NCBI GenBank assembly: GCA_023245335.1
Contig: JAHFKK010000001.1
Coordinates: 17,918-81,917, forward strand
DNA length: 64,000 bases
DNA from: Candidatus Gottesmanbacteria bacterium
GTDB taxonomy: Bacteria; Patescibacteriota; Microgenomatia; UBA10105; UBA927
Direction of reading: 5' to 3'
Part shown: in pieces, positions 9,252 through 57,400 of the stretch
Position numbering within the stretch: the first letter of the stretch is position 1
How the letters are laid out: each line of letters opens with the position of its first letter
The notes under the pieces: generated by a model
Databases searched by the model: none
What the model was told of the DNA's origin: nothing
The model's input: the letters and a program-made list of their open reading frames with translations, nothing else
Translations under genes and position numbers: made by a program

Positions 9252-10239
9252 AAATAAAACAGTACAGGATTAGCCCCACAAAAAACCCTTTGACCGCAAA
9301 CCCTATCCCCTTTTCTTCATAGACGAAGATCAAAAACTTGCGGATTAGAAAAATATGGATAACAAGTGCGCCCGCACATAACAATAATAGAATTTTGAGT
9401 CCAACAGTCATGACCCCGAGCGTCGCAACTGCACCAATGACACTTGCGACCGCTAACACGATGCTTCCGACCCCGGAAATTGCCGTTATCGCCTCAGTCA
9501 TAGTGGTTGCTACCGGATCGAATCGTTTACGACGCTGGTAGAGCTTCGTCCAATAATACGCGCGGAGAAAATATTTTTTGGCTATGGGCCAAAATCCTTC
9601 AAATTCATGCCGGACGCGGACGTGCGGCGCGAATATTATGGCGTACCGCCGGGCTATCCGATATGTCAGCTCAATATCCTCGACCAGTGGCGCCGGGTAC
9701 GTCTCATCGAAACCCCCGAGACGCTGAAATACGGTCTTTTTGATGGAAGCGATGCGGGTTGAGAACAAGAAGTAGTACCCGCTTTTATCCCGCTCGTTTA
9801 TCCAATAGCTCCAGTCACGCAGCGCTTTAAAATTGGGGAAAAAATCATGACTTCTTTGCTCTTTGACCCAGACTCCCGTGAGAGCTACGACATCAGGATC
9901 GTCCCCGTAAATCTTTGCGATTTCCGAAAGCGTGTCGGGAAACACTTCGACGTCTCCGTCCAGAAACACAACAAATTTCCCTTTCGCACTTCCTACCCCC
10001 CTGTTTCGCGCGATCGCCGGACCTTTATTCGCTTTGAGGGTCACGACCCGTATAAGAAGCGTTCTAAATTTTTTTCTATATTCGGGGCCTGACGCCCGAT
10101 ACTCACGTTTACTGCCGTCATCGACGATGATTACTTCAAACTCGGGGGCTTTTTTGCTTCTGCCGAGCGACACCAGTAACCGTTCAATTTTTTCGGGTGC
10201 GTTGTAATACGGGATGATGACAGATAAATACGGTCTCAT
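9208..10239 (-). CDS. GT2 polyprenyl-phosphate sugar synthase-like glycosyltransferase with C-terminal TM helices (GtrB/ArnC-like)
   Basis: LSVIIPYYNAPEKI...EVIIVDDGS...ARNRGV...FLDGDV, followed by two C-terminal TM helices. Confidence 0.75.
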   Translation of the reverse strand: MRPYLSVIIPYYNAPEKIERLLVSLGRSKKAPEFEVIIVDDGSKREYRASGPEYRKKFRTLLIRVVTLKANKGPAIARNRGVGSAKGKFVVFLDGDVEVFPDTLSEIAKIYGDDPDVVALTGVWVKEQRSHDFFPNFKALRDWSYWINERDKSGYYFLFSTRIASIKKTVFQRLGGFDETYPAPLVEDIELTYRIARRYAIIFAPHVRVRHEFEGFWPIAKKYFLRAYYWTKLYQRRKRFDPVATTMTEAITAISGVGSIVLAVASVIGAVATLGVMTVGLKILLLLCAGALVIHIFLIRKFLIFVYEEKGIGFAVKGFFVGLILYCFIFAGAISGRILHASP

Positions 10240-36400: not shown

Positions 36401-39400
36401 CGAATATCTTTTGTACTAGGTGAAATTGTTATACCCTCAACCGCCTTGGATATCACCGGCTCGAGTCGGTTATAGGCATCCCAAAGTACATAGTAACCCG
36501 AAAGATTCTTATTCTTGGAAAACGACGATTTTTGAGCATCAATACTATACTTACCCGACTCGACTGACGGACTCGTGGCAAATTGATTTTTCCGAAGCCT
36601 GCGCACCGTCCTTTTCCCATCTGCCAGCGTCACGTCATACAGAATAAGGGAGCCCTCGTTATATGGCTCGATCGCAGTCACGATCCCCGGCACCATTGTC
36701 CCATTCCCTTGCCCGACAAGGACAACGTCTTCAATTGCAATGCCCTCCGGCGTCGGAAGGTTTCGTTTCGTTATTGACCAAAGCCCGCGAATCGGTGCCG
36801 TTATGACTCCAATAAATCCCTTATTCGATTTATTGAGAATAGAATCGACACCCACCACTGCCTGACCAGTAAGGTAATCTTTCATCCATTTCCAATTCCA
36901 CTCCCACGCAATCGGTTTTTTCCACGTCCATGGCTTCCAACCGCCGGCAGTAAAGCGCTGCCAGTCTGTTTCGTAGAGAGGAAGCGTAACGCGGGCAATC
37001 TGTCGGGGGAATAGAAGCGGTGTCAATAACCTGGAACCAATCCATCCATATACGTTATGTATCGGTGTTGCGTTACGGATAAAATCCGGTAAACTGCGAT
37101 ACGTAAAATCCGCAGCGTCTAATACGTCAAATACCATCTGACCCACCTTCGCCTCATCCATCTTCCAGAAGGGAGATACCAGCTCGCCGCCTGACCGGAT
37201 GATGGAAACTACACCGTTTGCCACAAGTTCTCGGAACGATGTCGTCAATTGATCACTGAAAGTCTGAATGCTTGTATTTATATCGTCTCTGCGAGCGGCA
37301 ACCCACTGTGGAATTAGTCTCCACCAAACAGTATTCGTGGCTGGTACACTGGGACGGACAAACAATCGCAAATTTTCCTCCGCAGTTATGCTATATGTAT
37401 TCGTATCCGGCCTAGTAGACGCGTTCATCTGCTGGAATAGAGCTTGTGTCGGCAGCGGCTGAGGCCGAAGCTCCTCTTTCATTACACTAGGTTGATTAGA
37501 GTTTAGAATTCCTAAACGGGTTAACATATTTCTCACTGCGTTCCCTAGTCTTTGCCATAGTTGAGTAAGTAATGTCGAATTAGTTGTAGGCGAAGCCCTT
37601 ACGGACTGTTCTACTGGAAACACATATACTTTGGCAGCAGAATTGTACTGTCTGACGGTATCTGTTGCTTCGATATTCGGGCCATACACTAACCGTGCGC
37701 CATTTTGTAAAGTCGTCTGGATAAAGTTAGATCCGTGCAGATATCCCCAAAGTTGCGCGGAAAACGATGCCGAAAATTTCTTGAGTTGTGGGGCGTTGGT
37801 TGGTGATATTTTGGCATAGACACGCGGCGCTTCCAAAAGAAATCTCCTGGATGCCATCACGAACGCACGCGCTGTCTCCTGATCCGGTTGTCCTGATTGC
37901 GGGAGCGTCGCTATAACCCGAAGCAGTTCTAACCCGGCATCGGTATAGAGCTGCTTATATTCTTCATCGGTAGTTAAGCTTGACCGCAATGACGCAAATA
38001 TTCCCTGAAAATTTCGTATCGAAAGATCTAGCTGTAATATTTGCAGCCTGAGCGCTTTCCATAACTCATCATTCGTCGCGTGTTGTGTAACTGTTCCCCT
38101 CTGTTCTTTCTCAAATTCGATAGCCGGAATCCCCTCTGAGGCAAGCTGAAAAAATGGAAACAGGAAGTTCACCTGCTGGAGCGTTTCATAATGACTCGCT
38201 ACATTCGAATTTTTGGCGAATATATTCCAAAGCAGTCGTATTTTTTGTTGATCGGGAGGGATGCTTAAAAAATCCATATACATGGCTTTTGATACGAGAA
38301 CGGCTTCCACATCCTGATCACTAAACAATTCAGAGTGCCCGCCATATGTTTTTGTTTTATATTCATCATTGGCAAACATATCCGTAATCTCCGCATAAAG
38401 CTTTTGTGCCGTATCGCTCAGCTTCAGATTGGCCCGAAGGGGGTGAACACTATCAACGATGAGGAAAATATCGGTGTCATTTGGTATGGGTCCGGTCACC
38501 GTGCTGCCGTATACCACTTCTCTGGGGTTGGTAATAGCACCTGCTATCTCTAACTCCCGTACTGCGCCATGAAGCGAAGCTAACTTTTGCTGAAGTACTC
38601 GTGGTTGATTTGCAAATAGCCTGATGTCTGTCGTTCCCTGCCGTAAATTTCCCGCCCTGCCCGTAACTACCTGCACCGCCTCCCCAGCCTGCTGCCATAG
38701 ATTCAGGACCAATCCCACAGGTTTCTGCCCATAGTGCCATACCCAAACTATCGAACCAATGCCGGTAGACATAATGGATTTAAGGAACGCGCGGCCGGCA
38801 AACGAACATCCACCATCTGGGTTTACCCCGCTTCCAGCTGCGTAAACGTGCGGCACCAATGAGTTATAGGCATAACACTGATCATTTGCTATAACAGTGA
38901 GAAGTAAATCAGGGAGATTTTGCTTCGGCGTGACCGCCGCGCGATCAGCTTGAATCGTATTGATGGTAAGTCTGGAAGAGCTTGCCGGGTTAAACGGAGG
39001 ACGGGATTTGAGTATCAACGCCTCCGGACCGTTTGTTTTGAGATACGTAGCCAAATCGGTAAGATACGTATTCCCACCTTGTGTTAGCGCGATTGAGGTA
39101 TCGTCTTTTATAATCCAATTAGACGTGGGATCATCCGACTTGGCTTGCTCTCGTGAAAATCCGTTCACTGCAATCCAATCCCCCGCCTGCTTCAGTGTAG
39201 GTGCGCCCTGCCCCGTTGATTTATATAGCAAGATTCTATTCCCTGTTGGAAGTTCTAATTCCAAAAAATCTCTATCTGACACTAGCTGTCTATCTAATAC
39301 TGCAACGTTCGCGGGATAAAACGGTACCCCGTTCAACCCGTTATTTCCGGTCACTTTTTGTTGAAGATTCGCGAGTACCTCTGTGGCAACCTGATCCGAC

Positions 39401-42400
39401 GGTACATTGATTCTCCACCGTGCCACTATCGTCCCCTTGTATGGTGCGACCGGTTCTGTCACACCGGTATAGAAGTTACTTGGGTTATACCCTTCTCCCT
39501 TTATTAAAATGGTAAAACTGGGATCTTCGGCGGCTAACGATATGTTTGAATACCCGAATAATCGTGCTTGTTCCGTGATTGCCAGTGGTGCATTTTTCAG
39601 TATAAGAAATCCGTTCAGTTCGAGAGTCCTTTGCGCCTCCGCCAAAATATCTGGAAGTGTCGCTATTGTTACATCCGAAGCGATCACTGCACCGACACTA
39701 TTATCGGGAAATGGTAAGTTTGTCCCGCTATCTACGAAATTCAATGGATGCGTGGCGCCAACAAAATCACCTAAAGCGGTTCCAGCATACGGACTTGATT
39801 TGGCGGGGACCATCTGGGAACTTGATACTGTCTTACTGAATCCTACGCCATCAACCGCTTGTCCGGTAATATCTATATACAGACCACGGGGCGGATGCAT
39901 GTTTGCTGCGAATTCCACAATATCCACTACATTCTGCGGTATCGTGAGTAGCGGTTGAATGAGAGTCTTCTCGACGGACATCGACGACACATTCAATACG
40001 CCTGTCGGCTGCGGCTTGGGCGGATTTTCTGTCACCAATACACCCTCCTCACGCGATGTATTGGTAAGATACCGCTGCATGGCGGCCATGAATATCGCTT
40101 TCACCCGAGCCTCATTTTCCGCATGCACTAATGGAGCACCGGGCGGCTCGTTGGCGGGATTCGCATACAGTACCGTAATCTCCAGATCTTCCGGATTGGT
40201 CATATCCAGCTTCCATGATCGGATGGTACCGCGAGTCGAGAAAGGATCCAAGAAGCTAAATACGCCGTCTCCGGACAGATTGTCTGCCACCATGCCCTGT
40301 ATAGTTTCCCGCCAGTCCGCCTGAGCTAAATCATTTTCCGCCGCGCCAAACGCCTCAGTGAACTGCGTCTGACCTATGAGACGGCCGTCTGAAACAATGC
40401 CGAGATCCTTTCCGACCACCGTCGCACGTACATCGTACGAGATCCCATCGCGCACTTGATATATTCCGGCAAGCGATCTCGAAATTTGATTGATCAGCGC
40501 CTGCGCTTCTTGCGGGCTACCGACAATCGTTAGCTCGAAATCTCCGCCTTTTCTGAGGATGTCATACCAGGCAGCCGACCCCGTCTCTCCCATGTGGTTA
40601 GCCACAGAAAGCCTATGAAACATCTCTTTGATAAACGCGTTCCCTGCCGCATCGCCATAGGTATCATTGATAAGCTTCAATATTCCCGGCACACTGACGT
40701 GGAGTAGATATACTGACTTCCCGTTTGACGAAGCCTTCGTGAGTCGGTCAGTTAACGTACGGAACGCATGATCGAGGTAGTCCTGACGGTAGAGAAACGA
40801 CTCCATGTTCTCCTGTGCGGCTTCGGTAAAAAGTACCGGATCAAGGAGTGCCTCCTCGATAAACAGCTCGTATTTCGTCCTCACTGCCCACGGTATTTTA
40901 TCCAGGGCGGCAAAAAAATCAGCAAGTTCCGGGTGTATGGCGATGACTCTACTCCGCTGTAGACCCGCAGGTAACGGCTCGCTACGGTCCAGTAGTTCGG
41001 CCCATTCGTCAGCGGCTCCCGGGAGCGCCCGTACACGGGCCTGGTCATAGGCTACCGTTCCGCCTTTGACACCATATAGGGCAAATACTCCGCGTAGTTT
41101 AGCGTTCAGCTCGCTCACAATATCCCCCAGTGGCGTACGCGAAACAATCGCTAACGTATCCCCGTTTACCCGTATATCCCAAGTCGTGAGATTGTGCGAT
41201 TTTTGCAAATCGATAATCGTTTGAGCAATGTCATGTATGAGGACATCTCCGGTGACGCCGTATGGCTTCGCCCCGGTTTGATTTGCGCTGTACACGTCTT
41301 TGATGTCGACGGTTGCCACATAGAAGTTTGCACGGACCAGGCGGGGGAAAACGAATGAGGAAAGTATAGAAATCGCATTTCTGACAGTGCCGAAATGCGA
41401 TAAGATGGTTTGTGTCCGGTCCGGAGTCGCTACGTTGCCGTTTTCCGTAATCCTTGGAGTCTTCGGAAATGTTGCACCGGCGATGTCACGATTCAATCCT
41501 GGATCCAAAAGCCGGTTGTTGGCAAATAGATTAAAAAAGTTTATTTGAGATACCGGCATACCCGCCAAATCTGTCTCAGGGTTGAGATAATAGAGTGTCT
41601 TGATGACATCTTTGACCGTCGGATCTAGGGGTGCTATTGGACCTCTCGCAGCCGGTGCGCCCGTGGGAAGCGGAATGTTTTCGGGCGCTTCCTGAACCGG
41701 TTGGACTCTGGGTTCAATACCAAATAGTGGATTAGTATATACTTTGAACCATTCTGTAGCCTTTTGTATCACTGTGTTAATCGCTACCGTTACGAATTGG
41801 GAGTTCGATAACGATTCAGGAGTGATGTCTTCCGCCGGACTCGTGTTTCCGTACCTTTCGTTCGGTAATATGACGATCGGCTCATTGAGATTAGGTATAT
41901 CTAATACATAGGTCTGGTCGTATATCGTAAACTCTGCCACGTATCGCCTCGTAAGACCTACGGCAACGGTCCGTAGCGTCGGCGCAAAGGTTGCCAGATA
42001 GGGATCCCGTTTCATCGCCGCCACAAGTGCAACCACACCGGCATCCCGCTGAGAAATAGTCCGGCTAACATCCGGTATCGCCCGAATCGCTCCACGAACA
42101 GCAGATTCGTTTGCTGCCAACTGACTAATCACTGCATCCCGCAGGCTATCCTGGTAATACGGTCCGATTTTCTGCTTCCAGACAGCTGCGGTCGGATAGT
42201 GACCGATCACGGAGTCTATAACCGGTATACCGTGCTCGTCCGCAAACGCATGCGTAGGAATTTGGTTTACGATATGATCCTGCCCGTTTTGGGTCGCGAA
42301 GATGCGCACCCGCTTCTGGGCAACCAAAGTGACCAGGGTGGTATCCCATTGGATGACCGGCTTATGTTGGAGGATGTCATACCACCGAAGCGTATACGGT

Positions 42401-45400
42401 ATATTCTGCTGATTCTGCCGGTGCACAAAATCCGCATCGGATACCGCCGGATCACGGGTAAGTCCGCTTAACCGGGTATCAACGATCAATTTATCTACCC
42501 CCAACAATTTTGCGAAAAATAAAAGCGGAACCCGTACTAATTCCGGAGTCTTAGAGTCATTGACGGTCCGATATGCCGTGCCTAACCAGGGTACGCGAGA
42601 CCACTTATCATCAAATGCCGTGATCGTATCCGGTCCCAGGAGATACGGCGATAACAAACTGAAGTCCGAATTCATGTCTTCTACTAGATTAGGGTTCGCC
42701 TTTGCGTACTCGAGGACTATTTGCGCGCCAGTCGAATGCCCCAGGAAACGAACCCGTGTTTTTCCGTTTCCGAATGCAAATGTCGCCTGATCAGCGCTAG
42801 TTGCGGTCAATGCTTTCATGAAGTCGTTAAATTGCCCAAGCATACGTTCGTATTGGTATGTACTCGATGTCCCGGCAAAACTTCCCTCTCCGCCGCCCAT
42901 GGTTGGTGCCACGGCTATCTGGCGAATTCCATCCGTCCCGTACGGCACAAGATCCTCGCTCATGGGTTCGGCAAATACCCTGCGGTCCGCCTGAAATCCA
43001 TGCTGGGCAACGATGACTTCCGTCGCCCGTTCTATGCGTGTCTGTGCTTCGTCACGAAGTTGGTCGGGAGATACGTCCGCAAGTCTCGATCGATCGCCCG
43101 GAGTCAGCTTCGCCATCCACAAAACCGGTGTGTATTTGGCGCCGTAAAATGATGGATTCTTCACGGGCTGATACCCGGAAACATACAACATATCGCCTTC
43201 TACCCGCGCTACCCCTACGAACTGATGTTTGGCATCACTCGGACCGGCTTTCACCGCCTGTGCTAGATCCTGTCCCAAGCGATCCGGCAAGTTGTACTGC
43301 CGTGCCGTCCACCACGTCCCGACATAAGTTGTAATCTGCTGTATGAGGGGGGTTACGCTGTTTAATGCTGCGGCAATCGACCCAAGCCACCCAGGTAACA
43401 CGTGAATAAAAGATGACGGTAACAAGCTCAGTGGTCCTTGATTTGATAAGTGAGAGGCCTTAAGCGGTGGATTAACTTCTGCAGGTTTTTCATCAACGCC
43501 GTTTAGATAGTTTAGATATTCAAGTTTTGGATACATGTGCTTACTTACGAAGTAATAGTTATCCTTATACGGCGCGTTATATAGAGCCGCCAAATTGATA
43601 TCGTTCGGAAAAACACTTTCCTGAGTAAACCGCAAAAGCCCCTGAACATCACCCGGTAATGTCTGCACTGGAGACGACAATAATTTGCCGTTCGCATCGC
43701 GGATGTTTATCCGCAGGCCATATGTGATAAAGGCTTGTGTGCGCAAAATACCAAAATTCACACTAACATCTGTTATTTCCGCAATGGGATATGCTCCATC
43801 CTGAAAGGTTGCACCACTCTTACTTTTATAACTTAGCCACGACCCGACACCCTCCGTATACTCTTTTACATTCCCATCTGGAGTAAGAGACAATACATTT
43901 TCAATGCCGGAGCTAATGGTGCGCACATCTGGTCGTGATTGGGCGTATGTCAATACTGCTCCCTGCAACAATTTCCCCAACCCGGCGTTGCGGGTGTCCG
44001 GAGAAACGTAAATAAATTGTGTATAAAGATCCGATTTTTCTTTGTTGTACTCTCCTCCAACAAATCCAAGGGCTTTTCCACTCAAATCAGATATAACTAA
44101 TGTAAAAAATCCTGGTTTCGCTTGGTCAACCCATTGTCTGACTTCTGTTAACTGAGCAAAGGCTTCCGGAACCTTTGCAGAAACGGTGACTCTGTATTGC
44201 CCGGAGGAGTCAGCCATAAACGTATTATTCAAAGGTACGGTCGGATTTATTACTGAAACCGCCTGCGGCGGCGGTTGGGATTGAGGCTCGATATTTTCCG
44301 TTACTGACAGTTGCGGCGTCTTTAGGTATTGCCGTATCGGCGAAAGCGCCTGTAGATTATCCTTGTGCTGGATGACATCTTCAAACCCCACGACATGACT
44401 ATTTAACCACTCGCGCACGGTCACCCCGTCCGGATAGCGTCCCCTATCTTCAAGTCCAAATCCACCAAGATGATTCCAGGCATCGGAAAGAATCCATTGC
44501 TTAAATAGCTCCGCATCTTTGCGTGTACCAACGATATAGAGCAGGTAATCCGGTGGAATAAAGGTCTGATTCAACTTTTCATCAGTCACTTGGATATCCG
44601 ACTCTGATACTCCCTCAGGCAAAACCGTGACAACGGCATATCCGTTGAAAAAATCTCCTGCTGAGGCACCGATTGTGGACTTGCCAAAACCACCTAGCCA
44701 TAGCGGCTCATGTTCATTGGTACGGAGCCCAAAATCTAAAATATTGCGCAGTCCCTGGGCAAATTCGCCTATATTAGTCGCATTTATCGTAACGGAATGA
44801 CCGTTAATTTCGGCGTTTTCCAATATTTGACGCACTTCTTCGCTCAAAGAGCGAAACGTACTATCTCTGATATTAGCCGTCATCGTTTTTTCTAAGGCCC
44901 GGTACCCTGCCGAGTCTATCCAATACGACTCGCCCTTTCCGTTCGATAAGGTTAGCGGATGCGCACGAAGTCCCGTGGTAAATCCGAGTTGACCATAGGT
45001 TGCTGACTGGGCTATCATCGGACTCAAATGGGTATATTGCAGCCCGCCAACCGTCATTTCTTGAGGATTGATAGAAGGATTGACATGCAGAAGTAATTTG
45101 CCAATCGTCGGTTGCTCTGTTGGACTCAGCGCCTGGACAATCGTCACTACTGGTGGATCTACCAACATTGCCGCAAACTTCCCCGTCGCAACAATTACGT
45201 CCCCGACTGCACAATCATTTAATCCTGCAACATTGTTTCCCTGTGCATAGACGGGAGGAATAAGCCTCATCGCACTCTCACCACAGGCTTTTTCCCGTAA
45301 TGCTTCCGCTTGCGTTGTGATTGTCTTCTTCGCAGGATCCGTGATCGGTGCATATACTGCTTTTAATGATTTATCCGTCTGGACAAGTGGTACGACAATC

Positions 45401-48400
45401 GCGCCGTTTCCGCGAACGAGTCCGAAATAGCGGTGCAACTCATTATTAATAACTCCGTTCGCCTGCCACCAGAATTTAGCCGTAACCACAATCCAATCCC
45501 AAATACTTGGCGCATTCGCTGGTATACTGCCTATCCCCCGCTGCAAATCAGGCGCTTGCTGGACTAAACGGGTGAGGTATTGAAGGTATCGCACCTGCTG
45601 CTGCCACAGCTTCCAGATGCGCGAGAACGTGTCAGATACACCATACGCAGCAAGATCTGCTATCGCATTTTGGTTTGCCTGTATGTGTTGCGTATTGGTG
45701 GCTTTAACCACCGCGTGCTTCAAGAGATTACCTGCGACCTGTGTGCGAAAAATAGCTTGCGGAAGGATATCCGGTTGCACTTTGACCGCTGCCCCACCAG
45801 TAAGTACCCCTGTGTCTGGCGCGATTACACTCGCGTAGGAAACATTACTTGCGACTGCGGGCGGATCAGCTTTATTCCGTAAAAATAGCGTCGTCCGAAT
45901 GGGCGCCACGACGGACTCAAAATTCGCCGCTGCCACAAGATACGTATGAGGTAGACCATCCGCATTCCTATTCGCCTCGGAAACTAGAAAGTATTTACCA
46001 GCCGGTAGGTTATATACGTTACTCTGCTCAAGATCGAGTACGTGTAAGACGGTAAACGTATGATTTAAATCTGCCATCCATCCCACATCGCCATCACGAA
46101 TATCATCAACAGAACCAAGCCGGTATGCATCGTTCGCACGCTGAGCCCCACTGAAAAGAATTTTTCCTGCCGTGCGCTTAAGGTAATTTATAACAATATC
46201 AATTTTGTTATCACCCTTCTTCGCTTGAGGGAATATTCCCTGTGCCTTATTTGCGTCATATATTGCAGCAAACATCCCCTTCGCATCAGGTCGCAACGGG
46301 TAATCGGTAATATTGCCGGCCATGTAGACCCCAGGAATAGTATTAAGAAGCTTGTCCCAATCGACACACTGAACTAATTGCGACACCGGTTGCTTATTGA
46401 CCGTCACAATTGTGTAATCGCTTTCAAGATCAAGCAATTTTGCCGTAAAGTCTGGATATTTCGCCTGATCCAAAAGATACGCCAATGGAGATCTGCTTAT
46501 CCGTGCCTGGAAGTAAAGCCGGAACGTCGTCCCATTATCCTTAGTCGTTATATCAGCACCGGATTGATACGCGTGAATTGTCTGCTGTATTTCGGGAAGT
46601 GATTTCTGACTGTAGTCCGTAACAAAAGATTCCAATGTAGTTATCGTCTTAACATCATCCGTACGGGCCGTCTGTGACGTAATAGTTATCATCTCAGACT
46701 GAGCGTCAGCTTTTGGATTCGTCCCTACGGGAACGGTATTTGGTGCGATTACAGACTGCGGGCTCGTTGTGTTCGCCACAGTTTGTTGCGGTGATCCAGG
46801 TGGAGTTGTAGCAATCGTAAAGGCATCTGCAGAAATTTTCTGCATTACCGGCACAATATCATTTACTTGCTCCTGCGAGCTAAATTTACTTAAAAACACC
46901 ATGATATATGCCCCGCCTTTCGGCAACCTCACGATAGCGATATCGTTTGCAGTATTGAGTCCTCCTTGTTCAAAGACGTACCCAATTTTATGCAACATTT
47001 GTGCTCGGACGCTTGCCGGCAGCGGCTCGCCGATCCACCATTTATCATCAGCGGTAGGCGTAGTTAACAACGTCGTGATATATCTGGTACTACTGTCCGA
47101 TATTCCGAGTGACTTATCGTAAAATTTCTCCAGCAATGTACCCACATCATCTGCAGTCATATATCGTGTTTGGATATCAATATGGGTTAGATTCCATTGC
47201 TGGAAAATTTTCTCCTGGGAAAATCCCGGCTGGAGCAATAAATACTGCAGTAACACCTGAGCAGCGGTGTCATCTGACCGAACTAAGGCGCGTTTCATGA
47301 GGTCAGCTGTCGTGCTGTTATTCCAGGACGGGTTATCAAACCACAATTTGTTATGTTCTGCTAAAAACTTTACCGGCCGTTGACTCAGGATCTGCTGATT
47401 CGTGAGACCCTGCTGCTCAAAAAACGAAAAGTACGCAATGACAAGAGGCCATTTAATGGTTGATGCACCATGAAAAGTTACATCGGAATTTATACGAACG
47501 GTATCCGCATCTGTTCCCCCTATCTTATGTATATAAACTCCGATATCACCCGGTAACGATGAGAGTTTGTTCAGAATAACTACCTGCTCTTTCCCATAGG
47601 AAAGCGGCATGGCGTCCAGACCTACCGTGACAGCCTGCTCATTATCGACAGGAACAGGAACATAAAATGCTTTAGCCCTGCTATCAGTTACAGATGTTTG
47701 TTCAGAATTTAACGTATCCGCTAATTTTCCAAAGGCTTTTGTCTGCAACTTGGTAACCAAATCTGTCACCTCTGCTGATTTCGGCAATACGGTAAATTGT
47801 CCCGTTAAGACCTGGTCAGTTGGTGCGTTGTGTGTAGGATCCGAAGAATACGCAAAATATTTGACCGGTGCTGTGTATTCATTTGGTGTATATAGGCCCG
47901 CAAACACGTTAGGAGCAAACATGTTTAGGATCGTCCCGTCGGAACGGAGTTGAAGTGCGTGCGCGTTCATATGCTCCCATGGCATAACATATCGCCATGC
48001 AACCTCCACCCCGGAATCATTTATAAATGGTATAACATTACCGGTAAACGTTCCGTTCTGCACTGCAAGTAAAGTCTCCTGTGACACATATAACTGTTCG
48101 TATGTACCATCGCCCGAAATTTGCAGGTCCGTCCAAGGCACAGAGTACGCAACCGTATAGTCAGCAGAAATTCCCGTTTCGGATACCGCCGGAAACAATA
48201 ATAGACTCGTCTGATTCGCAAGCGGAGCTCCTGAAGAATCTAGCCCCAATAATAACGGATGAAGCGTCCCCTGACGAAGAAACTCATGAGTAGAAATCCA
48301 CACCTCACGCATTGATGGTTTATAGATGCTTACCGGGAATATATCGTCTGTACCATCAGCGATATTGGGTAGATTGATGATTAACCGTATGTACGAAGGA

Positions 48401-51400
48401 AGGTTTAATGTTTCATTATTGACAGCTAACTTTTCCTGACCCAATCCGACCAGTTCCATTTTGCCGTCCCGAATTATGACAAACTTGCCTATCGAGACGT
48501 CTTTCCCGTTCTGATAATCAAATAGTTCATACACCGAACTCACGAATCCGGGCACGTCCTGATTAAATTGGTGCCAAGGGACACCGCTATTAGTTATGTC
48601 GTCTCGCCGCCGCATGAGAAGATTTCCATTCTGATCAACATACTCAAGCGGTTCGTAAAGCAGGATGGATTTATCCCATGTCGAAACATCCGCCTTATTT
48701 TGGGTAAGTCGCGTTCCCAAATCATCGATGGATGTGATTGTGGACACGTCAATATCTGCTGCTAGAGCCGGGTGATCGACGGTAGTGACTGTATTATTCT
48801 GACTGTCAAAACCGATAATTTTCCCGTCTCCATTAACGTACAGTGTAAATCCTTGATGATATACAGCGTAGAGAGTCTGATTAAGCCAGCTAAAGTTCGT
48901 CCGGTATGCATATAGGGATCCGGTCCGATCGAAACCAAATTTAGCCGCAATCGGATGGCGCTCGCTATTGTAGTAACCTAATTTTCCATCGATATCCATA
49001 AGCACTCCGGTTTGTAATTGACCTCCAGTGGCTTCTCGGAGCACGAACGGGGCAGAAGAACCAATGATTCGCTGCGATTTCCCATCCAGACCGTTAACGT
49101 CCTCATAAAATCCGGCGGATTCAGGGTAAAACATGGTACCCTGCAACTTTCCCTGTTGTGTTACTGCAAGTAATGATCCGTCCGCCTGGTTACGTTCGGC
49201 CGTTATATGATCAGTCTGTCCGTAGTCAAAATTATACGAACCGGTTTTGGCGTCATAGGAATAGGCCTTTCTCGCACCCACGATAGGCGATTTGCGTTCC
49301 GGTAGAGTTTGCACCATTGCAGGTCGAACTGAAAGACTCGGCGGCGGCTGATAATGCGTTCCCATTATCAAAAGAGCACTACCGACAACGAAAGACATCA
49401 CCATCATGCTTCCGACATACGAGATGAGACCAAAGCCGGTTACAATCATGAGCGTGAAATAGAAATTCCGGAGTGTTCGGTTTTGCAAAAACCATCCGTC
49501 CAGAAACTGATAGGCATGGAGCGCCTGCTGCCCGAATGTCGGACGCTGAGCGTTTACCGCATCATACGTCTGACGGAGCGTGCTATCGGAAAGCACAGCA
49601 TACGCCTCATCAAACACCCGCTGGTGATTCCGTACGCGGAAAAGTATGGTACGCACTAATCTGCTTATTGGTACTTGCCACTTGAATAGGTATACATCTT
49701 CAAATGCAAACGGTCGGTTCAAATTTTCCGACTGGTCTCGATAGGCGGTTTCGATTTCCGCGGTTGTTGCGTTAGGCCGCACACCTAGTTCACGATAATA
49801 ATCTCTAGACCGCGCTGAAATATGCGCTTCAAGCGTTACCCGATCGGGAATTTGTATGACTGCAACAGGTGTCGTGTCTGCACCGATACGGTACTCCAGA
49901 CGGTACCCTTCGTTACTATTGCCTCCAATATGTACCGCTATGGCTTTTTCGGCCGGACGCATCTGAAGTAATGCGACCGCTGGACTGATTTCTGCTGTCT
50001 GCCAAAAGTTTGCCCGGAACATTGTTGGAACCGGAAGCGATATCGCTTTTCTGTCAACCGTATTCACTGTCATTGCATTACCGACTTGTTTCGTTACCGG
50101 AGCGGACGTAATACCGTTTAATAAGAATGTTGCTAATACAGTCGCACGTTTTATTTCCGGAGTGAGGTCATCAGGCGTACGGACGCTTATAAGCAACCGG
50201 GTTAATACATTCGCTTCTTCTTCGGGGCTTCTGCCATCAATCACCCATTCGTCATATCTCGAACCCGAGAAGTCTCGGTTCCGCAACGCATCGACAACAT
50301 CATGGATCTGTGCCACCAAATCAGTATCTACGGAAATGTTTACGACATTCTGTACCTGATTGGTAATGATATCTGTAACTGATTCCTGAAATGCCGTGTC
50401 GGCAAAGACACTGGGCAACTGATGCAACCAGATATCCATGCGTTCATGGATAAGAGTCAGGGCGGCGTCTGTCTGATCGGTTCTTAATAGTTCAAATATT
50501 CTACTTCCTAACGGGTCGGACGGGTCGGTAAAGGCTATCCGCAGATTCCGAAACTCTCGTATAGACACGAGTGCGTCTGTCGAACTCATAGACCTCCACG
50601 CGGTTAGAAGCGTACTCTGTGCAGATCGAGGTAACCGATCCAAAGCCCATGCAAGTTCAGTTACCTGATCGGTTAAGGTCGCCTGAGCCGCATTTAATTG
50701 TGTTGTGTATGCTGACGGAGTCATTCTGGGAGCATACGAGAGAGCATTTTTTCCGCCGACATCGGTTACTCCCAGCTTCTGCCTGATCATGAGACTTAAT
50801 GCATTCGTCACGTGTAAAAGAGACTTACTCGACCCTTCACGCTCCTCCCAAATGCGCTTTTGTGCAAGACCAATCAGATCCGAATCAAGTCTCAACTGTT
50901 CTGTGACAATCGGGAAAAACCGTGATAATTCATTTGCTGTGGTTAGCTGATCCATCTGTATAGTGAGTGCACCGCTTCGATATTGATTAAAAAGCCACAC
51001 CGTATGTTCTGCGGCGACCAAGTTTGCTTCACCGGCCGGAATACCGGGGTGTGTGGTTTGGAGTCGAGCTTCAAAAAAGTTCACTATTGCATCTTGCGCA
51101 TTAGTAGAAAATAACTGCAGTATGTGTTCAAGTTCGGTATCGGAAATATTTCGGAGTTCCTGACGGTACGCGTAAAATCTTGTTGCTGCCTGCTCTATAC
51201 GGTTGAAGTGCTTCTTTGCACGGAGATTTATATTCGAAGCGGAAAATATACCTACAGAGATAAACGCGTCAGCGGGCAGCCGCTGCTTGATCTGGGCATA
51301 TTGCACCCGGTCATCAGAAGAAATAATTCCGAGGACGACCGCCTGTTCAATGCGGGGCGTAACGTTGGTATCCCATACGATCAGTTGTGTCATCGCCTGT

Positions 51401-54400
51401 GCCGCCATCGTACGCGCTGTTGTAGAAACCACATCACTGGCGCCCGACTGCCGCAGGCGGGAATCAGAACGCAGGATATTGGTTATTCCATCTTCTATGC
51501 CTCGTTCCAAAATTTGTTGATCAACATTCTTATTCAATAATGACTGAATAAGCTGATTTAGCTGTGTTGTGTGACTATTTAATATACCTGTTATGATACT
51601 GCTCACTGCAGGCGGCTCTCCTATAGACTGTGGTAGTTGATGTCCATTTACTAATTCATTCGCCAATTGATCAATGGCTATCCTTTTCTGTTGCGCTTGT
51701 TGTGCTTGTTGACGCGCAAGCGTTTCTGCTTCTTGTATCCGGGATTGTTCGGTAATATTGCGAAGACGCGCGACTAACGGATCAGTAACCGCGCGAGTCA
51801 CTGAGTATTGCTTGCCCATCGCAGTTAACCCTTCGGTTACCGCTTCTTCGAGATCAATAAATAAACTATTTGAAGTTTTTGGAACTGGTTGTGGACTTCT
51901 CATTCCTCCACCGCCGGGCCCTGCTCCGCCGCCTCCCTCCGCCCCTGGGCTACCATCATCATGATGTATTACTTCGATATCCTTTCGATCAGACGGGGTA
52001 GGTCCGTTATTGGTAAATACCACCACCTCGCCCGTAAGTAGTTTTTGTGGTTTTGTTATATCAATTGGTGCGCTGCCAAGGTCGTCAAATGCATAATATT
52101 TTTCGGTAAACAACCCGTCATACACGACAACCCGGCCATCCTGAAGCTCAAAAAGTTTGTACCGCAGTGGCATTAATTGCGGCGAGGCAACAAACGGTGA
52201 TCCTGCAGGACTTTCCATGAGCGCCGTGTGTGCACTCTGCACATCTTGCTTACGCATCTCCCGCGCCTGTTCTCCATTTATGAGCCACACGGATCCACCA
52301 GCGAAGTAGGAATCACTGTTGAGAATTTCTATTTTTTTCGGTTTTGTATAGACTGCACCACTTGCCCCCACCACCGCGTATATACTTCTTCCCTGTGCTA
52401 ATACCATCCCGGACGTGAGATAACGTGTGGTTCCAGAAGTTAAATCAAACAAGAATGAATATCCCACATCGTCCACAGTGGTTGTGTACACATCAAAACC
52501 AACGTCCCAAAGAGGAATAAGAGACCTATTTGGTAACGCCCGGTGAAACTGTTTATCTACGGAACTGTATACATATATAACGGGCCTTTTAATAATTGTG
52601 TTTGAAAAAATAATCTGGTGCGGTTCATCCGGCTGAATCACAATAGGTCCATTAACCTCAACCCCATCAACCATAACTTTACTTCCTATAAGAAAACCGA
52701 GATGAATTCCACCTGGCTGTATCGTTTCGTATATGGCGGTTTCCGGAAGAAATACTGCATTCTGAGGAACGGAGGATACATCGGAAATACGGTTTTGAAT
52801 TATGGTCAATACCTGCTTACCAACCGCATCAGTGTCCAAGACACTTAATTGTCCATTGTCTCTTCCGATGTTAGAGTCGCTACCACCCAGACCGGCATCT
52901 TGGATATATCCGCGCATTCGGCCGTACCGATCTACGTCCTCTATCGAAAAATTATCCGATGGCAAACCCACATCCCTATCGGGTTCTTGCACGTCAGTGC
53001 TTATGGCTTTAAACACAATAAACAGGGTGTCGGGATGTCCATTCCAATCAGCGTGTCCAAAACCGTAAATAGGAGTCTGTAAATCTCTGAACTCCGATAA
53101 ATATTGGTAGATTAATAATTCGACATCATTACCGCCGGTGCCCGTAATTGTGTGGGTTATCTCTCTAAACTTAATAATATAATCGGTATTTTCTACACGA
53201 TATACATACGGACGCGAAGACAGAGGTATTAACCTATGCCCCGCGTAAGTTATTGTGTCTGTCGCCGTATCAGTTACCAGCGATGTACTTACGTCCGGAA
53301 TTGTTGGAATCCAGGGAGTCGTTGCTGTTTTTCGGTCAGCGTTCGTTCCTCCCTCTCCGCCTGCCCCCGTTCCTCCACCGTCCGGTTTTGCCCCACCACC
53401 TTCCCCGCCCTGTTTCGGCAAGCCAAAAAGATACTCCCCGATTGTATGGGTAAGGGCAGCAAGTTCTGTATCGGAAATACCCAGATGATCCGGGGCTTGC
53501 TCATTGGTTTCCAGCTGTTGTTTGAGCGTCTGGTAGAGAAATGCTTGGACTGTGGGAGTAACGGTGTTATCAACTTTGGCGTCAGAGAGGGGCGCGTCGA
53601 GGAATCTCTGTAATGTGTCGGCTTGTATGTCTCTCAATGACGTATTTTTTTCTAGTGCCTCTATCGCCTTTTGTGTCGCGGAAAGAGTCTTGGGGACATC
53701 GGTGATGTTGGCAGAACCGATGATCCGGATATAGACAGGTATACGCGTGAGAAACTGCTGTACGGCGACATCCGCGGGCGTTCCCTTCACGCGGACATAT
53801 ATCGAGGAAATGGTATCCCGGATTGCTTTTCCGGCATCCTGACTGCCGAGTCGCATGACGAGTGCGACCGGCGGAATGGTGCTGACGCCTGCCTCAGACA
53901 TCGCTTTCAGCGTCGTATTCACGACTTGTCTAATTTGGGATTGTTGTTCGTCGGTCTTTAGACCCGTCGTGTTTACGATAAGGGTAGTGATTTGACTGGA
54001 AACTGTGTTGGGGCGTTCAAAAAAATTGGCAGGTTTTGCGGGCGTCCGGAGCCATAGATAGTGAGAGATCTCCTGAACTAACGGCTGAAATTCATCAGAG
54101 AAGATGCCGTACCGCTCTTGCAGTGCCGCGAGTGTCTCGGGATTTGATACCTGTAAATTCGTCTCGGTCGGGAATATCTGTCGGAGAAGCTCCGTGGTGA
54201 TTGCGGCTTCGTGTGCCGCGAGAAAATCCGCCTCTTCTTGACTTGCCGGCCGCACCCATCCGTCGTTTGCCTTTTCCAACGCCTCTAGAGCCAATAATTC
54301 CTGCCGCACAAAAGTCGGCACCTGGTCCGTGTGATCAACTCCTACAAGGAGTATTGTCCTGGTATAAAAAGCGAGTAACGCCTGCTGTGCCGGAAGGTTA

Positions 54401-57400
54401 TTTGCCAGTTGAGTTCTCTGTGCCGTCATGCGCTGCAATGGATTTACATCGTTTTGCGGGATCAGATATCCGTTCATCTCGTCCACCGTCATGTCGCGGT
54501 GTATACCTAACTCATCGGCCAGAATCTGCGCATTCCATTGGAAATCATCCAGGGTTTGTAACTGCTCGGGAGATGCGTTTGGAATGGGTTTCGGTGTTTC
54601 CTTCCCTATCCGGATCGGTGTGAGGGCGAGTTGGTTTGTGGAAGTTATGTTTACTCGGGCGACAACATCGCGTCCCAAAAGAATCTGCGTTCCGTCTCGT
54701 AGTATTCTTCCTTCCACGGGGACAACTATCAAAGGAAAATCCTCCATGCCGGGATATACTATCTGCGTGCTCGTTCCCGGACTGAGTTCCGCGTCATCTA
54801 CCATCCATGTCTTCGATTCGAGGTTAAAGTATATTACCGCGTGTTTTCCCAATACCGTTGGGATGGTTGCAGGATCAAACTGTATCGCATTATCTACATC
54901 CGTACCCAAACTAATCCAACTGCTCTTAGTAAAATGTTCAGTCGGATAAAACACCCGAACAGTTCCCACATTTACTGCAGCCGCGGTTTTCCCCTTCCCC
55001 GTCCGGCGCCAGACCCGGAATGCATTATCAGGTTCTTCCTTCACAAATCCCGCTGCTTGGTAAAATGCATTGAGCCGGGCCGATAAATCGACGAGGTTGT
55101 CGCCTGCTTTATATCCCGCCGGAGACGGTATGACGCGTACTCCCACACTCCCGGTATTGAGATTTTTGGCGGCTTCCAATAGGCGGGTACCGATATTTAC
55201 CCCCTGATAACTAGGATCCACAAACAGTACGCTTATCTCATCCAAATCGCCCGTAGGAGAAGTCTGTACCGCGACAAATCCGGCAACCGCACCGTTATAT
55301 TCGTCTCTTGCGATAAGGATCGCAGCGTTATTGAGTGATGCCGCCAACGGGAGATTCGTGATACCAGGATTTTCTTTTTGAACGCGCGCAAGCATCCCGA
55401 CGACGTCATCCGCTGTCCCTTGTTGTACCGTCACATCGACCGCAGTAAACAAGTTACGAAGTGGCGTGACCATGTCCAAATATTGTTGATCAGTGATGCT
55501 CTCGTCTCTCTGTAAATTATCGACTTCACGACCCAATTGGTTCACCCGGATTTGTCTCGCTGCAGCGCGCTCGGTGGCCGCACTCTTCGTATTGCCTACG
55601 CCGGTATATGCTTCCGCGAGCATTTGGTGGATATACATCTGGGCCGCAGAAAAGATGAGCGGGTTACTGTCCGTACGCTTGCCGTATTCCGCATTTACTG
55701 CCGTGAGCGTCGTCGTCAGATCCTGTATTGCCTGATCAAATTCTCCGTTGGCAAGCCGTGCGTCAATTGCCGAAAATTGTCGGATGAGGCTTGCGACATA
55801 CTTTCCGCAGTCGTCACAATTTTGGTAATATTCGTCCGGTTGACCATCCGAAGTTTTGGGAAGTATGGCTGCCCGTTGCAGCATCGCAACGATGACTGCG
55901 GTCAAAAATGACGGCTGCGACGGGGACTCCGGGATGCTCGCCGGGAGGTAGATAACCGGGCTATCCTCCTCCGGCATCATTTGAGCTACCTCACGGATAA
56001 TGTTCGCTTCACGCTGGGCGGCTGGATTTTTCCTGAGTATTGCCTCAAGCGTTTTGAGGTCCTGGAGGCCTCGTTGATAGTTCGCGGTACCGGGCTTCAT
56101 TAACGCTGACTCAAGTGACGTAAGGAATTCATGCATATTCTCGGTAGGCCCGACGGGAATACCGACTTGCGCAAGTGCAGTTGTCGCCTCTTTGATTGCC
56201 GCTCTCGTCTCTTGAGTATTCTCGAAAGGTGCCTCCACAGTCTCTACCGCGTTCACGATCACGCGGCGTACGCTCTGCACAAAATCCGGGGATTCTATGT
56301 GCTTGTTTTCCGACGCCAACGTATCCCGCACCAACTCCAATGCGCCTAAAAGTTTCGTGGCTGCCTGCGTATCGGTTATGGCATCCACCTGGCCTGTTAC
56401 CTCAGGACGCGTGAGGGCAAGAAACACCGAGAACACAGTAGGGTTAGTTTCCGGTATCGTGACGCCGGCATTGGTAAACGCCCGGACGACCTGACCCGTG
56501 AGCGTCCGTAGGTCTGCTTCACTCATATCCCCGCGTACAATATGGCCATTTATTATCGCCATTTCCCGTACCACTTCGAGCATCACGCTTTTTATCTGAT
56601 TAATTGCCGCAAGCAGCTCAAGCGTCACTGCAGCCGTCGTTTGAGGAGTAACGATGATAGGGGCTGGGCTTTCTTCTTCCGCAGCAAATTCACTTATTGT
56701 TGTCGTATTGTCTACGCTTACCGGGACTAAATGCAGCTGCTTTTCCAGATTATCTATCTCGACAGTTAGACTTTGTAACACGGCAGTGATACGACCAAGG
56801 GTAAATACGCTCTGTGCATCCGATTTATCCGCAAGACTGAGTTGATAATCGGATAGTATCGACGCTAATTCCTGAGTGACCTCCAACTCACTTATTGGCT
56901 CCAAACCTTGTGTCAGCTGCCGTACTACCGGATCTATGTCGGCGGCTATCGCGGGGTCAAAAGTGGCGCTTCCCATATCCGCCACCAACTGTGCTGCTAT
57001 GGATAGCAACTGTTGAACGGGTCGTTGCGGCAATGGATTCACTTCATTTTGGATAAACGATCCCACTATGTTTGCCTCATACTCGGAAGAGGCAACTACT
57101 TCAACCGATGCAACATGAGACAACATCGGTGCCACTTCTGCTATTGCGCGATACGTTGCTGCTAGACTGTCCGAAATATCGACTCCGCCTTTTCCGGATC
57201 CCATAATCGGCAATGCTATCGTCTGAACCCCTGCAGCATCCGCCTCCAAAAGGGCATTCTTTATGCTCTGATAAATCGTATCGGTAGTCATAGGTATACG
57301 GCCCGCATAGGTTGTATCTGGAATGTAGCCTGTCGCTATAGCCTGAATAATGTATTTAATTTTTGTCTGAGAAAAACCCCGAGCTATCTGCACTACTGCA

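Follow-up and report, generated by a model that had tools for sequence, protein, structure and literature searches.

A predicted PBP-A-like serine hydrolase domain with a truncated omega loop inside a 10,150-residue bacterial protein

Introduction

PBP-A is a DD-carboxy/endopeptidase that operates without a catalytic glutamate (PMC11189452). Its solved representative, the cyanobacterial, class-A-like Tll2115 from Thermosynechococcus elongatus (2J7V/2J8Y), is a free protein of ~300 aa. The products of DD-carboxypeptidases matter to a second group of wall enzymes, the VanW domains, which are L,D-transpeptidases that require tetrapeptide donors made by DD-carboxypeptidases (PMC11348318). Giant proteins from Omnitrophota and other bacteria are very long, non-repetitive and membrane-associated, with scattered divergent enzyme domains that include GNAT, and have been proposed to act at cell walls (West-Roberts et al. 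2023, 10.1101/2023.11.21.568195). A preprint on Omnitrophota argues that many giant proteins keep most of the polypeptide on the cytoplasmic face (10.64898/2026.06.07.730766). The main texts of both reports (10.1101/2023.11.21.568195 and 10.64898/2026.06.07.730766) contain no mention of a beta-lactamase or PBP domain.

Here we describe such a domain in a giant protein encoded within a 64,000-nt stretch of a Candidatus Gottesmanbacteria contig (the window). As an enzyme type it is ordinary; what is unusual is to find it within a giant orphan protein.

Results

The domain is carried by a 10,150-aa ORF on the minus strand (33454-63906), which runs for 30,453 nt without a stop. The protein is mostly unannotated and non-repetitive, with no internal repeats found by self-BLAST. 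The only Pfam domains above cut-off are Macro, GNAT (two sites, one at aa 6586-6664) and Beta-lactamase2, which share one reading frame; HD, a J-like segment, GGDEF and M32 match below cut-off. A phmmer search of aa 1-10,000 against the PDB matched only Macro-like proteins and PBP-A/TLA, PHROGs gave nothing meaningful, and more than 90% of the chain has no recognisable domain. The PBP-like domain occurs once, with no second copy in the protein, and no further peptidoglycan-related domain was detected anywhere in the 10,150 aa by Pfam, NCBIfam, PHROGs or PDB searches. In its length, hydrophobic segments and few scattered enzyme domains the protein resembles the giants of the Omnitrophota type; Pfam found no SecA_DEAD, dockerin, TSP3, C39 or S8 domain in aa 1-10,150. 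The plus strand of 46807-47589 has stops throughout, and its sole ORF, a 117-aa antisense frame, lacks support and was rejected as coding.

An exact look-up of one protein from the window returned no entry. No homologue of aa 5200-5900 was found in the genome-collection scan, and word-index searches with the PBP-like domain alone and with aa 5001-6200 returned no match; the giant protein therefore appears to be absent from the public collections searched. Megablast of the neighbouring 25 kb against phage and plasmid collections gave no match, and the window yielded neither a tRNA nor any Rfam RNA. A DegT neighbour in the window has plasmid tblastn matches of only ~50% identity, which come from unrelated phyla and are uninformative on taxonomy.

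An earlier note, made from the sequence alone, had placed a serine beta-lactamase or penicillin-binding-fold domain inside a giant membrane protein at 46807-47589. PF13354, an AF2 model and Foldseek all agree with this assignment, and the limits set by the first and last helices of the predicted structure (aa 5439-5700; 46807-47592, minus strand) are nearly identical. PF13354 (Beta-lactamase2) matches with E=1.6e-18 and 67.3 bits (cut-off 22) over profile positions 3-212 of 214. The best NCBIfam match is the class A profile NF033103 (E=3.6e-16), which at 59.1 bits lies below its curated cut-off of 200. PF00768, the family of S11 low-molecular-weight PBPs of the PBP5/DacA type, gave no match in the domain at E up to 1. 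In a PDB sequence search PBP-A (2J7V) ranked best (E=4.4e-8), with the top beta-lactamase at 1.8e-5. The AF2 model (pLDDT 84.3, pTM 0.84) has the alpha/beta penicillin-binding fold; confidence falls at its C-terminal end, where residues 281-291 have a pLDDT of ~41 and residues 287-291 lie below 50. Foldseek against the PDB returned TLA-1, PBP-A, PER-2 and CTX-M with probability 1.0 and TM ~0.7, LRA-5 also with probability 1.0, and the best 50 matches are class A enzymes or PBP-A throughout. Profile and model together indicate that aa 5439-5700 form a complete class-A beta-lactamase/PBP-fold domain, a match far beyond chance.

The motifs read by eye as ASTIK, SDDTAAQVLL and KIGYVF were all recovered on the minus strand at the positions first given, and in the predicted structure each sits on its canonical element. 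Motif 1, S-T-I-K (47452-47463; the full ASTIK is aa 5481-5485), belongs to an A-S-x-x-K that is invariant in the alignments, and the long helix 57-74 (model numbering) has the motif's serine at its N-terminal end. We take Ser5482 to be the Ambler S70 nucleophile and Lys5485 the K73 general base; they are present in 112/112 and 111/112 aligned relatives, respectively. Motif 2, S-D-D (aa 5544-5546; 47269-47277), replaces S130-D131-N132 and falls in the loop that joins model helices 109-118 and 122-133. Its serine is near-invariant; at the third position the window domain has Asp and the closest subfamily Glu, while Patescibacteria-type proteins and TEM-1 have Asn, and an exact S-D-D occurs in none of 119 representative relatives. 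Motif 3, K-I-G (aa 5640-5642; 46981-46989), lies on beta-strand 3 (model strand 213-221) in place of K234-T/S-G236; both its K and its G are invariant, with Ile at the position of the hydroxyl residue, as in many relatives. Among relatives the middle residue varies (KIG in 33, KTG in 29, plus others). A further invariant residue, Asp5655 in A-N-D-I-A-I-V on strand beta-4 (46942-46944), is Asp in 107 of 114 aligned relatives.

Across 19 diverse relatives A57, S58, K61, K216, G218 and D231 (model numbering) are invariant and S120 is nearly so, and this pattern of catalytic-residue conservation was repeated in a 121-sequence alignment. The motif spacings are 62 residues from Ser to S-D-D and 96 from S-D-D to K-I-G, compared with 60 and 104 for the corresponding intervals of TEM-1. 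A loop of ~15 residues, PVKFLAEHNKLWFDNPS (aa 5511-5527; 47326-47376, minus strand, as for all features here), is missing from the three closest relatives; SDN-type relatives and TEM-1 have one of comparable length.

The earlier note had also named a Glu166 equivalent as something to look for, and here the result is clearly negative. What stands in place of the omega loop is a stub, WNLTHIDIQTRYMT (aa 5571-5584; 47155-47196), which contains Arg5581 and no equivalent of Glu166 or Asn170. Alignment with TEM-1 leaves an 11-residue gap that spans W165-D176, the loop being shorter by ~11-12 residues in the window domain; compared with the family profile, PBP-A has an insertion of 8 residues at this site and TLA-1 one of 14. 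A separation of 14 residues between the helices that flank the omega loop is found in 116 of 118 Patescibacteria-type matches and in 67 of 119 representatives. Arg5581 is conserved in the subfamily, and among relatives it goes together with an acidic residue at the third position of motif 2. Since the loop is truncated and both Glu166 and Asn170 are gone, the sequence would place the domain on the PBP/DD-peptidase side and not among the beta-lactamases.

PBP-A is the best solved match both by sequence and by the family profile (172 bits, E=1e-49, versus at most 126 bits for any true beta-lactamase and about 120 for LRA-5). Like PBP-A, the window domain has no catalytic glutamate, as judged from the omega-loop alignment and the published property of PBP-A (PMC11189452). 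The two share only ~19% identity in structural alignment: PBP-A has S-D-N, K-T-G and an omega loop longer by 8 residues, whereas the window domain has S-D-D and K-I-G and sits in a 10,150-aa chain, and the specificity of PBP-A for amidated muropeptides is not transferable to it. The class A beta-lactamases TEM-1, CTX-M, TLA-1 and PER-2 have the same alpha/beta fold, motif order and positions of secondary structure, and TLA-1 also has the N-D-I motif on strand beta-4. In contrast to them, the window domain has lost the Glu166/Asn170 segment and carries N132→D and T/S235→I. LRA-5 (8EO5), a class A "beta-lactamase precursor" from a soil metagenome, is a standalone protein of class A fold, and the title of its "Y69Q/V166E mutant" (8EO7) implies that Val and not Glu is the natural residue at position 166. 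Because V166 is numbered in that title, we infer that LRA-5 retains residue 166 and with it this part of the omega loop, unlike the window domain.

The nearest relatives of the domain are 30-39% identical. In the three closest (P0001, P0002 and P0004) a VanW domain with a conserved GGGICG follows directly after the serine hydrolase domain, and one further relative carries LysM. The module is placed after a membrane-spanning helix in P0004 and P0001; in P0001 it lies between two membrane helices with the ATP-using SecA_DEAD beyond the second, thus joining Beta-lactamase2 to a hallmark of giant proteins of the Omnitrophota type. The window protein differs from these three in having no VanW: a Pfam search of aa 5701-6000, with E allowed up to 10, was empty, and an HMM made from the sequence that follows the module in P0001, P0002 and P0004 found no match in the giant protein. 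Identity to relatives does not exceed 39%. Standalone relatives have lipobox-like or Tat-like N-terminal signals on inspection of their sequences, and the ten close relatives inspected have either an export signal or the module behind a membrane helix, except P0002, which has no hydrophobic segment in the scan. A truncated omega loop is shared by the uncharacterised Patescibacteria and Anaerolineae "class A beta-lactamase-related serine hydrolases" and the VanW fusions, many of them with K-I-G; the closest of these VanW-fusion and Patescibacteria-type proteins also have an acidic third residue in motif 2 together with the Arg of the loop stub, as the window domain does. Most members of this group appear to be lipoproteins or substrates of Tat export, about 310-350 aa long and unlike the giant window protein, and many Patescibacteria-type relatives also match PF00768 (S11 DD-carboxypeptidase). 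Genome and metagenome scans with an alignment of close relatives found only six loci, all of which encode small standalone proteins.

A Kyte-Doolittle scan of the giant protein gave three hydrophobic segments, at aa 380-465, 4817-4851 and 10085-10140. The central one (49354-49458), a candidate membrane crossing, is 35 residues long, lies ~590 aa upstream of the PBP-like domain and is flanked by two Arg before and one Arg after; the shift in composition across it is small. It is adjoined upstream by a J-domain-like segment without an HPD motif (aa 4701-4782; 49561-49806), with a partial match to Pfam DnaJ (25.2 bits, cut-off 27.8) and weak matches to NCBIfam DnaJ. If this candidate J-like segment marks the cytoplasmic side, the hydrophobic segment would place the PBP-like domain outside the cytoplasm. 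The GNAT domain lies on the same side as the PBP-like domain, with no membrane helix detected between them.

Discussion

The domain is probably a folded and active acyl-serine hydrolase of the class-A/PBP-A lineage, best read as a penicillin-binding DD-peptidase and not as a beta-lactamase. Indirect support for a peptidoglycan substrate comes from the activity of PBP-A, the apparent export of the relatives and their fusions to VanW and LysM. This export and the central hydrophobic segment also point to the extracytoplasmic side as the most likely location of the domain, with the giant protein as its tether. By analogy with the family, Lys5485 would activate Ser5482 for attack on the D-Ala-D-Ala carbonyl of a stem peptide (carboxypeptidase) or, alternatively, on the D-Ala-to-DAP/Lys cross-link bond (endopeptidase). 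Ser5544 and Lys5640 would pass a proton to the leaving D-Ala, the oxyanion hole would be formed by the backbone after K-I-G on strand beta-3, and the peptidyl-enzyme would be released by water, such that the domain would trim or cut peptidoglycan locally. The Asp at the N132 position and Arg5581 mark an uncharacterised S-[DE]-[DE]/Arg subfamily, which may differ in the feature of the stem peptide that it recognises.

That the motifs arose by chance in a very long sequence, or that the ORF is an artefact of assembly or annotation, is so improbable that it can be set aside. S-x-x-K occurs 28 times in the 10,150-aa protein, which makes the motifs alone weak evidence, and the regions around the domain have no detectable homologues. 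This reading is nevertheless ruled out by full-length profile matches with E down to 1e-18, homologues of up to 39% identity, the confident AF2 model with its Foldseek matches, and the stop-free frame of 30,453 nt that holds Macro, GNAT and the domain together. It is very unlikely that the domain is a true class A beta-lactamase with a protective role against beta-lactam antibiotics. The best NCBIfam model is indeed that of a class A beta-lactamase, and beta-lactamases make up most of the top structural matches; yet the score of 59 bits is far under the curated 200, the family profile favours PBP-A by 46 bits, and the truncated omega loop leaves neither Glu166 nor Asn170. With that part of the loop deleted, a beta-lactam would be expected to give a long-lived acyl-enzyme, and no turnover is expected. 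Even PBP-A with an engineered Glu stayed five orders of magnitude below the natural enzymes in activity (PMC11189452). Resistance genes should not be called from matches of this kind to "class A beta-lactamase" models.

The same fold and acyl-serine chemistry could serve a non-peptidoglycan substrate, or a low-turnover binding or sensor module of the penicillin-binding type, and we regard this as rather unlikely; the domain might, for example, be an esterase or amidase whose target is another D-amino-acid peptide, a lipid or some polymer belonging to a neighbouring cell. N132→D and T235→I fall at substrate-contacting positions of class A enzymes and PBPs, and the true substrate could therefore be something other than the classical D-Ala-D-Ala stem. 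Both S-D-D, which no representative relative has in exact form, and K-I-G are thus non-classical; moreover, the VanW and LysM partners of the relatives are missing from the window protein, whose other domains (Macro, GNAT, HD-like and J-like) are not cell-wall enzymes. Against this, every catalytic residue is retained, which is unlike a decayed pseudo-enzyme, and Ile in motif 3 is normal for the family: of the relatives with S-D-N, more have K-I-G than any other form. Domains that act on or bind peptidoglycan are fused to the nearest relatives, which are apparently exported, and the nearest solved protein, PBP-A, is a proven DD-peptidase. It is more improbable still that the domain faces the cytoplasm, where it would trim soluble wall precursors (for example UDP-MurNAc-pentapeptide) or regulate other parts of the giant protein. 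GNAT domains normally use cytoplasmic acetyl-CoA, and one is found on the same side of the central hydrophobic segment as the PBP-like domain; these 35 residues could form a re-entrant hairpin instead of a single crossing. The argument for mostly cytoplasmic-faced Omnitrophota giants also points this way (10.64898/2026.06.07.730766). What speaks for the outside is the export or membrane-helix placement of the ten close relatives, save P0002, and the J-like domain on the opposite side of the hydrophobic segment. In addition, peptidoglycan-acting enzymes of the PBP/class A fold work outside the cytoplasm.

The PBP-like domain is one of only four confident domains in the giant protein, together with Macro and the two GNAT sites, and confident functional handles on such proteins are rare because more than nine-tenths of the chain is without a recognisable domain. 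Should it prove to be an active DD-peptidase that faces outward, it would tie the giant protein to peptidoglycan and support a cell-wall role of giant bacterial proteins in one more lineage. A bolder reading, which we consider doubtful, is that of an envelope-anchored, multi-enzyme machine at the cell surface. The giant protein would deliver or hold a PBP-A-like domain with acidic N132 position, stub Arg and new stem-peptide specificity against a peptidoglycan layer. If so, the domain would cut cross-links or remove terminal D-Ala, possibly on a neighbouring or prey wall, in a form of contact-dependent wall editing that has not been described for giant proteins, and in the fusions the subfamily would feed tetrapeptides straight to the fused VanW L,D-transpeptidase. 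The recurrence of the fusion with VanW suggests a coupled module, so far unstudied, that leads from pentapeptide to tetrapeptide to 3-3 cross-link.

Beyond its last helix the domain is followed by a linker rich in Pro, Thr, Ser and Gln (aa 5701-5740; 46687-46806), as read from the sequence. Further along, aa 5840-5995, a candidate region for a second wall hydrolase, gave no HMM or PDB sequence match and a single-sequence AF2 model that was unusable (pLDDT 33); a papain-like Cys...His order, as in CHAP and NlpC-P60, was noticed there by eye.

Results and Discussion

Translation of the minus strand across window positions 46807–47589 gives a frame that is part of a single uninterrupted ORF of 10,150 aa (33454..63906). 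Coding on the plus strand of this interval was considered and ruled out, since it carries stops throughout and its sole ORF, of 117 aa, is antisense. The SxxK, SDN-like and KTG-like motifs described in the earlier note were all found exactly as reported in the minus-strand frame, as G-A-S-T-I-K (aa 5480–5485), R-S-D-D-T-A-A (aa 5543–5549) and H-K-I-G-Y (aa 5639–5643). Its coordinates also proved accurate, with a structure model setting the limits of the serine hydrolase domain at aa 5439–5700 (46807–47592, minus strand). The spacing is 62 residues from the serine to SDD and 96 from SDD to KIG; the equivalents in TEM-1 are 60 and 104 (Ambler numbering). S-x-x-K by itself is uninformative because it occurs 28 times in the giant protein. 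The domain matches Pfam Beta-lactamase2 (PF13354) with E=1.6e-18 (67 bits, cut-off 22; profile positions 3–212 of 214), the NCBIfam class A profile with E=3.6e-16 and, by PDB sequence search, the Thermosynechococcus PBP-A with E=4.4e-8, while no other serine hydrolase family (S11, class C) matched it in Pfam at E up to 1.

An AlphaFold2 model, built from an alignment with 120 homologues from a profile search, has a mean pLDDT of 84.3 and a pTM of 0.84, with local pLDDT of 94–97 around motif 1, motif 2 and the omega region. The top 50 Foldseek hits in the PDB are class A β-lactamases and PBP-A only (probability 1.0, TM ~0.66–0.74), including TLA-1, TLA-3, PBP-A, PER-1, PER-2, LRA-5 and CTX-M. 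In domain numbering (add 5424 for the giant protein), a long helix (57–74) begins at Ser58, a loop joining helices 109–118 and 122–133 carries S-D-D, and strand 213–221 holds K-I-G, followed by a strand with Asp231. At the level of helices, loops and strands, the motifs are thus predicted to occupy the canonical class A positions. Profile match, confident model and Foldseek result together bear out the β-lactamase/PBP fold that had been proposed from sequence, and this is almost certainly a genuine class-A-fold domain of the PBP type.

An equivalent of Glu166, which the earlier note had raised, is absent and the loop is truncated: a MAFFT alignment with TEM-1 leaves an 11-residue gap over W165–D176, a segment that includes Glu166 and Asn170. 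In HMM alignments, PBP-A and TLA-1 carry insertions of 8 and 14 residues here relative to the family profile, and the loop has 14 residues in 116/118 Patescibacteria-type relatives and 67/119 representatives. PBP-A is an experimentally characterized DD-carboxypeptidase and DD-endopeptidase, and its key difference from β-lactamases is the missing catalytic omega-loop glutamate (PMC11189452). The domain resembles it in lacking this residue. [quoted passage not shown] Against the NCBI curated class A β-lactamase cut-off of 200 bits the domain reaches 59, and a profile built from it and 18 relatives favors PBP-A (172 bits, E=1e-49) over the best true β-lactamase (126 bits). Truncated loop, low score and profile preference therefore place the domain with the PBPs/DD-peptidases, and it is very probably not a β-lactamase.

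An exhaustive search with HMMER, covering 1.84 billion cluster representatives, yielded only 119 proteins at E<1e-3, with best identities of 35–39%, which marks the domain as a divergent member. A57, S58, K61, K216, G218 and D231 are invariant, and S120 nearly so, in 19 diverse relatives; the same holds across 121 sequences, where D121 is also invariant. Judged from these alignments, the active site shows no sign of decay. S-D-N together with K-I-G or K-T-G characterizes a Patescibacteria-type standalone subfamily, in which domain position 157 is Asn. Among the 18 representatives nearest to the window domain, the third residue of motif 2 is Glu in all 17 aligned there (S-E-E, S-D-E and variants), and position 157 is Arg in 17. 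With S-D-D (47269–47277, minus strand) and Arg5581 in the omega-loop stub (47164–47166, minus strand), the window domain therefore belongs to this second, acidic/Arg subfamily, although the exact S-D-D occurs in 0/119 representatives. By inspection, Arg5581 appears to correspond to R178 of class A numbering, where the omega loop has its C-terminal neck. The two sites co-vary, which suggests that they changed as a pair close to the active site. A loop of ~15 residues (PVKFLAEHNKLWFDNPS; aa 5511–5527, 47326–47376, minus strand) is kept in the window domain and lost in its three closest relatives; loops of comparable length occur at this site in TEM-1 and in more remote S-D-N relatives.

These three relatives (loci L002, 1213–4731; L003, 143–13480; L004, 1049–4183) share nothing but this domain with the giant protein, and in all three a VanW domain that retains G-G-G-I-C-G directly follows it. 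Their proteins are P0004 (1172 aa), whose gene adjoins those of NusG and of ribosomal proteins L10, L1 and L11, P0001 (4445 aa), whose complete gene lies on a metagenome contig of 13.9 kb, and P0002 (1044 aa). In L002 and L004, a 95–100-aa ORF directly precedes the fusion gene. A 2024 study showed that VanW domains are L,D-transpeptidases, which require tetrapeptide donors that DD-carboxypeptidases make from pentapeptides (PMC11348318); fusion of a DD-carboxypeptidase-like domain to one therefore makes functional sense. The fusion provides the strongest, if indirect, argument that the subfamily would act on peptidoglycan stem peptides. The fusions could represent a coupled DD-carboxypeptidase/L,D-transpeptidase module, which finds no mention in the searched text of the VanW paper (PMC11348318). 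Other features of relatives point the same way: LysM in P0012, S11 DD-carboxypeptidase matches in many distant relatives, N-termini with lipobox-like or twin-arginine-like signals (by eye) in standalone relatives, and a single membrane helix before the module in P0004. In P0001 the module is flanked by two membrane helices, and a C-terminal SecA_DEAD ATPase domain follows the second; this arrangement would place the module outside the cytoplasm.

The giant protein has hydrophobic segments at aa 380–465, 4817–4851 and 10085–10140, and weaker ones at 642–663 and 827–845. The 35-residue central segment is preceded by two Arg and followed by one, and the Macro, first GNAT and J-like domains, typically cytoplasmic, all lie before it. 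A single crossing here would put the serine hydrolase domain outside, in agreement with the location predicted for its relatives; we infer this location rather than assert it, because a hairpin is possible, the domain shares its side with a second GNAT and composition changes little across the segment.

A mechanism is proposed in which the domain would be an acyl-serine DD-peptidase. Lys5485 would activate Ser5482 for attack on a D-Ala-D-Ala or cross-link bond, Ser5544 and Lys5640 would protonate the leaving group, and water would release the peptide; β-lactams would acylate the domain without turnover. Tethering by Pro/Thr-rich linkers, such as that read at aa 5701–5740 (minus strand), implies local action on any peptidoglycan within the giant protein's reach. 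Since PBP-A harms the foreign wall when produced in the E. coli periplasm (PMC11189452), offensive use is chemically plausible by analogy, alongside remodeling of the cell's own wall. That the domain is at once active, peptidoglycan-directed and extracytoplasmic is moderately probable. The enzyme kind is already well known; what is unusual is its context, a divergent copy within an orphan 10,150-aa protein, and its motif-2/Arg signature.

Pfam, NCBIfam, PHROGs and the PDB give no match over more than 90% of the giant protein, which contains no internal repeats at E<1e-4. Besides Beta-lactamase2, Pfam matches above cut-off are Macro (ADP-ribose-binding/hydrolase; aa 2156–2248, 57163–57441) and two GNAT acetyltransferases (aa 2860–2955, 55042–55329; aa 6586–6664, 43915–44151), all on the minus strand. 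Weak matches under cut-off, likewise on the minus strand, are HD (aa 1311–1387), GGDEF (aa ~7716–7769), an M32 peptidase near the C-terminus and a J-like segment (DYYRELGV...AYAVLSDSTLRQTYD; aa 4701–4782, 49561–49806). The last lacks the HPD motif, has an insertion and directly precedes the central hydrophobic segment. In PDB sequence searches, aa 1–10,000 matched a Macro-like protein and PBP-A/TLA only, and no homologues of aa 5001–6200 or 5200–5900 were found in the public collections searched; by sequence, the ORF behaves as an orphan giant protein. Relatives of the domain are common though uncharacterized, but embedding in very large proteins is rare: the one relative from a species-representative genome collection is a standalone Anaerolineaceae MAG protein, and a metagenome scan gave small proteins only. 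SecA_DEAD is a hallmark of the giant proteins of West-Roberts et al. (10.1101/2023.11.21.568195) and is missing from the window protein, whereas P0001 offers at least one instance of this domain built into a large SecA_DEAD-bearing protein. Neither the main text of that study nor that of a 2026 Omnitrophota preprint (10.64898/2026.06.07.730766) mentions a β-lactamase or PBP domain.

About 140 aa downstream of the domain, aa 5840–5995 (45922–46389, minus strand) read 'LVQCVDW ... RDGDVGW ... NHTFTVLHV ... SEAN', in which Cys precedes His as in papain-like CHAP/NlpC-P60 wall hydrolases. This region had no HMM or PDB sequence match and its single-sequence AlphaFold2 model was unusable (pLDDT 33); it is a possible candidate for a second wall hydrolase.

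The neighboring 33 kb (1–33417), the window's left half, form a dense island of surface-glycan biosynthesis genes, whose content points to a cellular chromosome; megablast of 25 kb of the neighboring DNA gave no match to phage or plasmid collections. The island encodes several GT2 glycosyltransferases and one of GT4, two DegT aminotransferases, a Wzy_C O-antigen-ligase-like protein, two PMT_2 and one YfhO membrane proteins, a PIG-L deacetylase, an NPCBM protein, methyltransferases and a SPASM protein, and several of its ORFs of 500–840 aa have no Pfam match. Within the cluster lie a DUF7282 protein (7043–7636, minus strand) and a 273-aa leucine-rich-repeat protein (7646–8467, plus strand).
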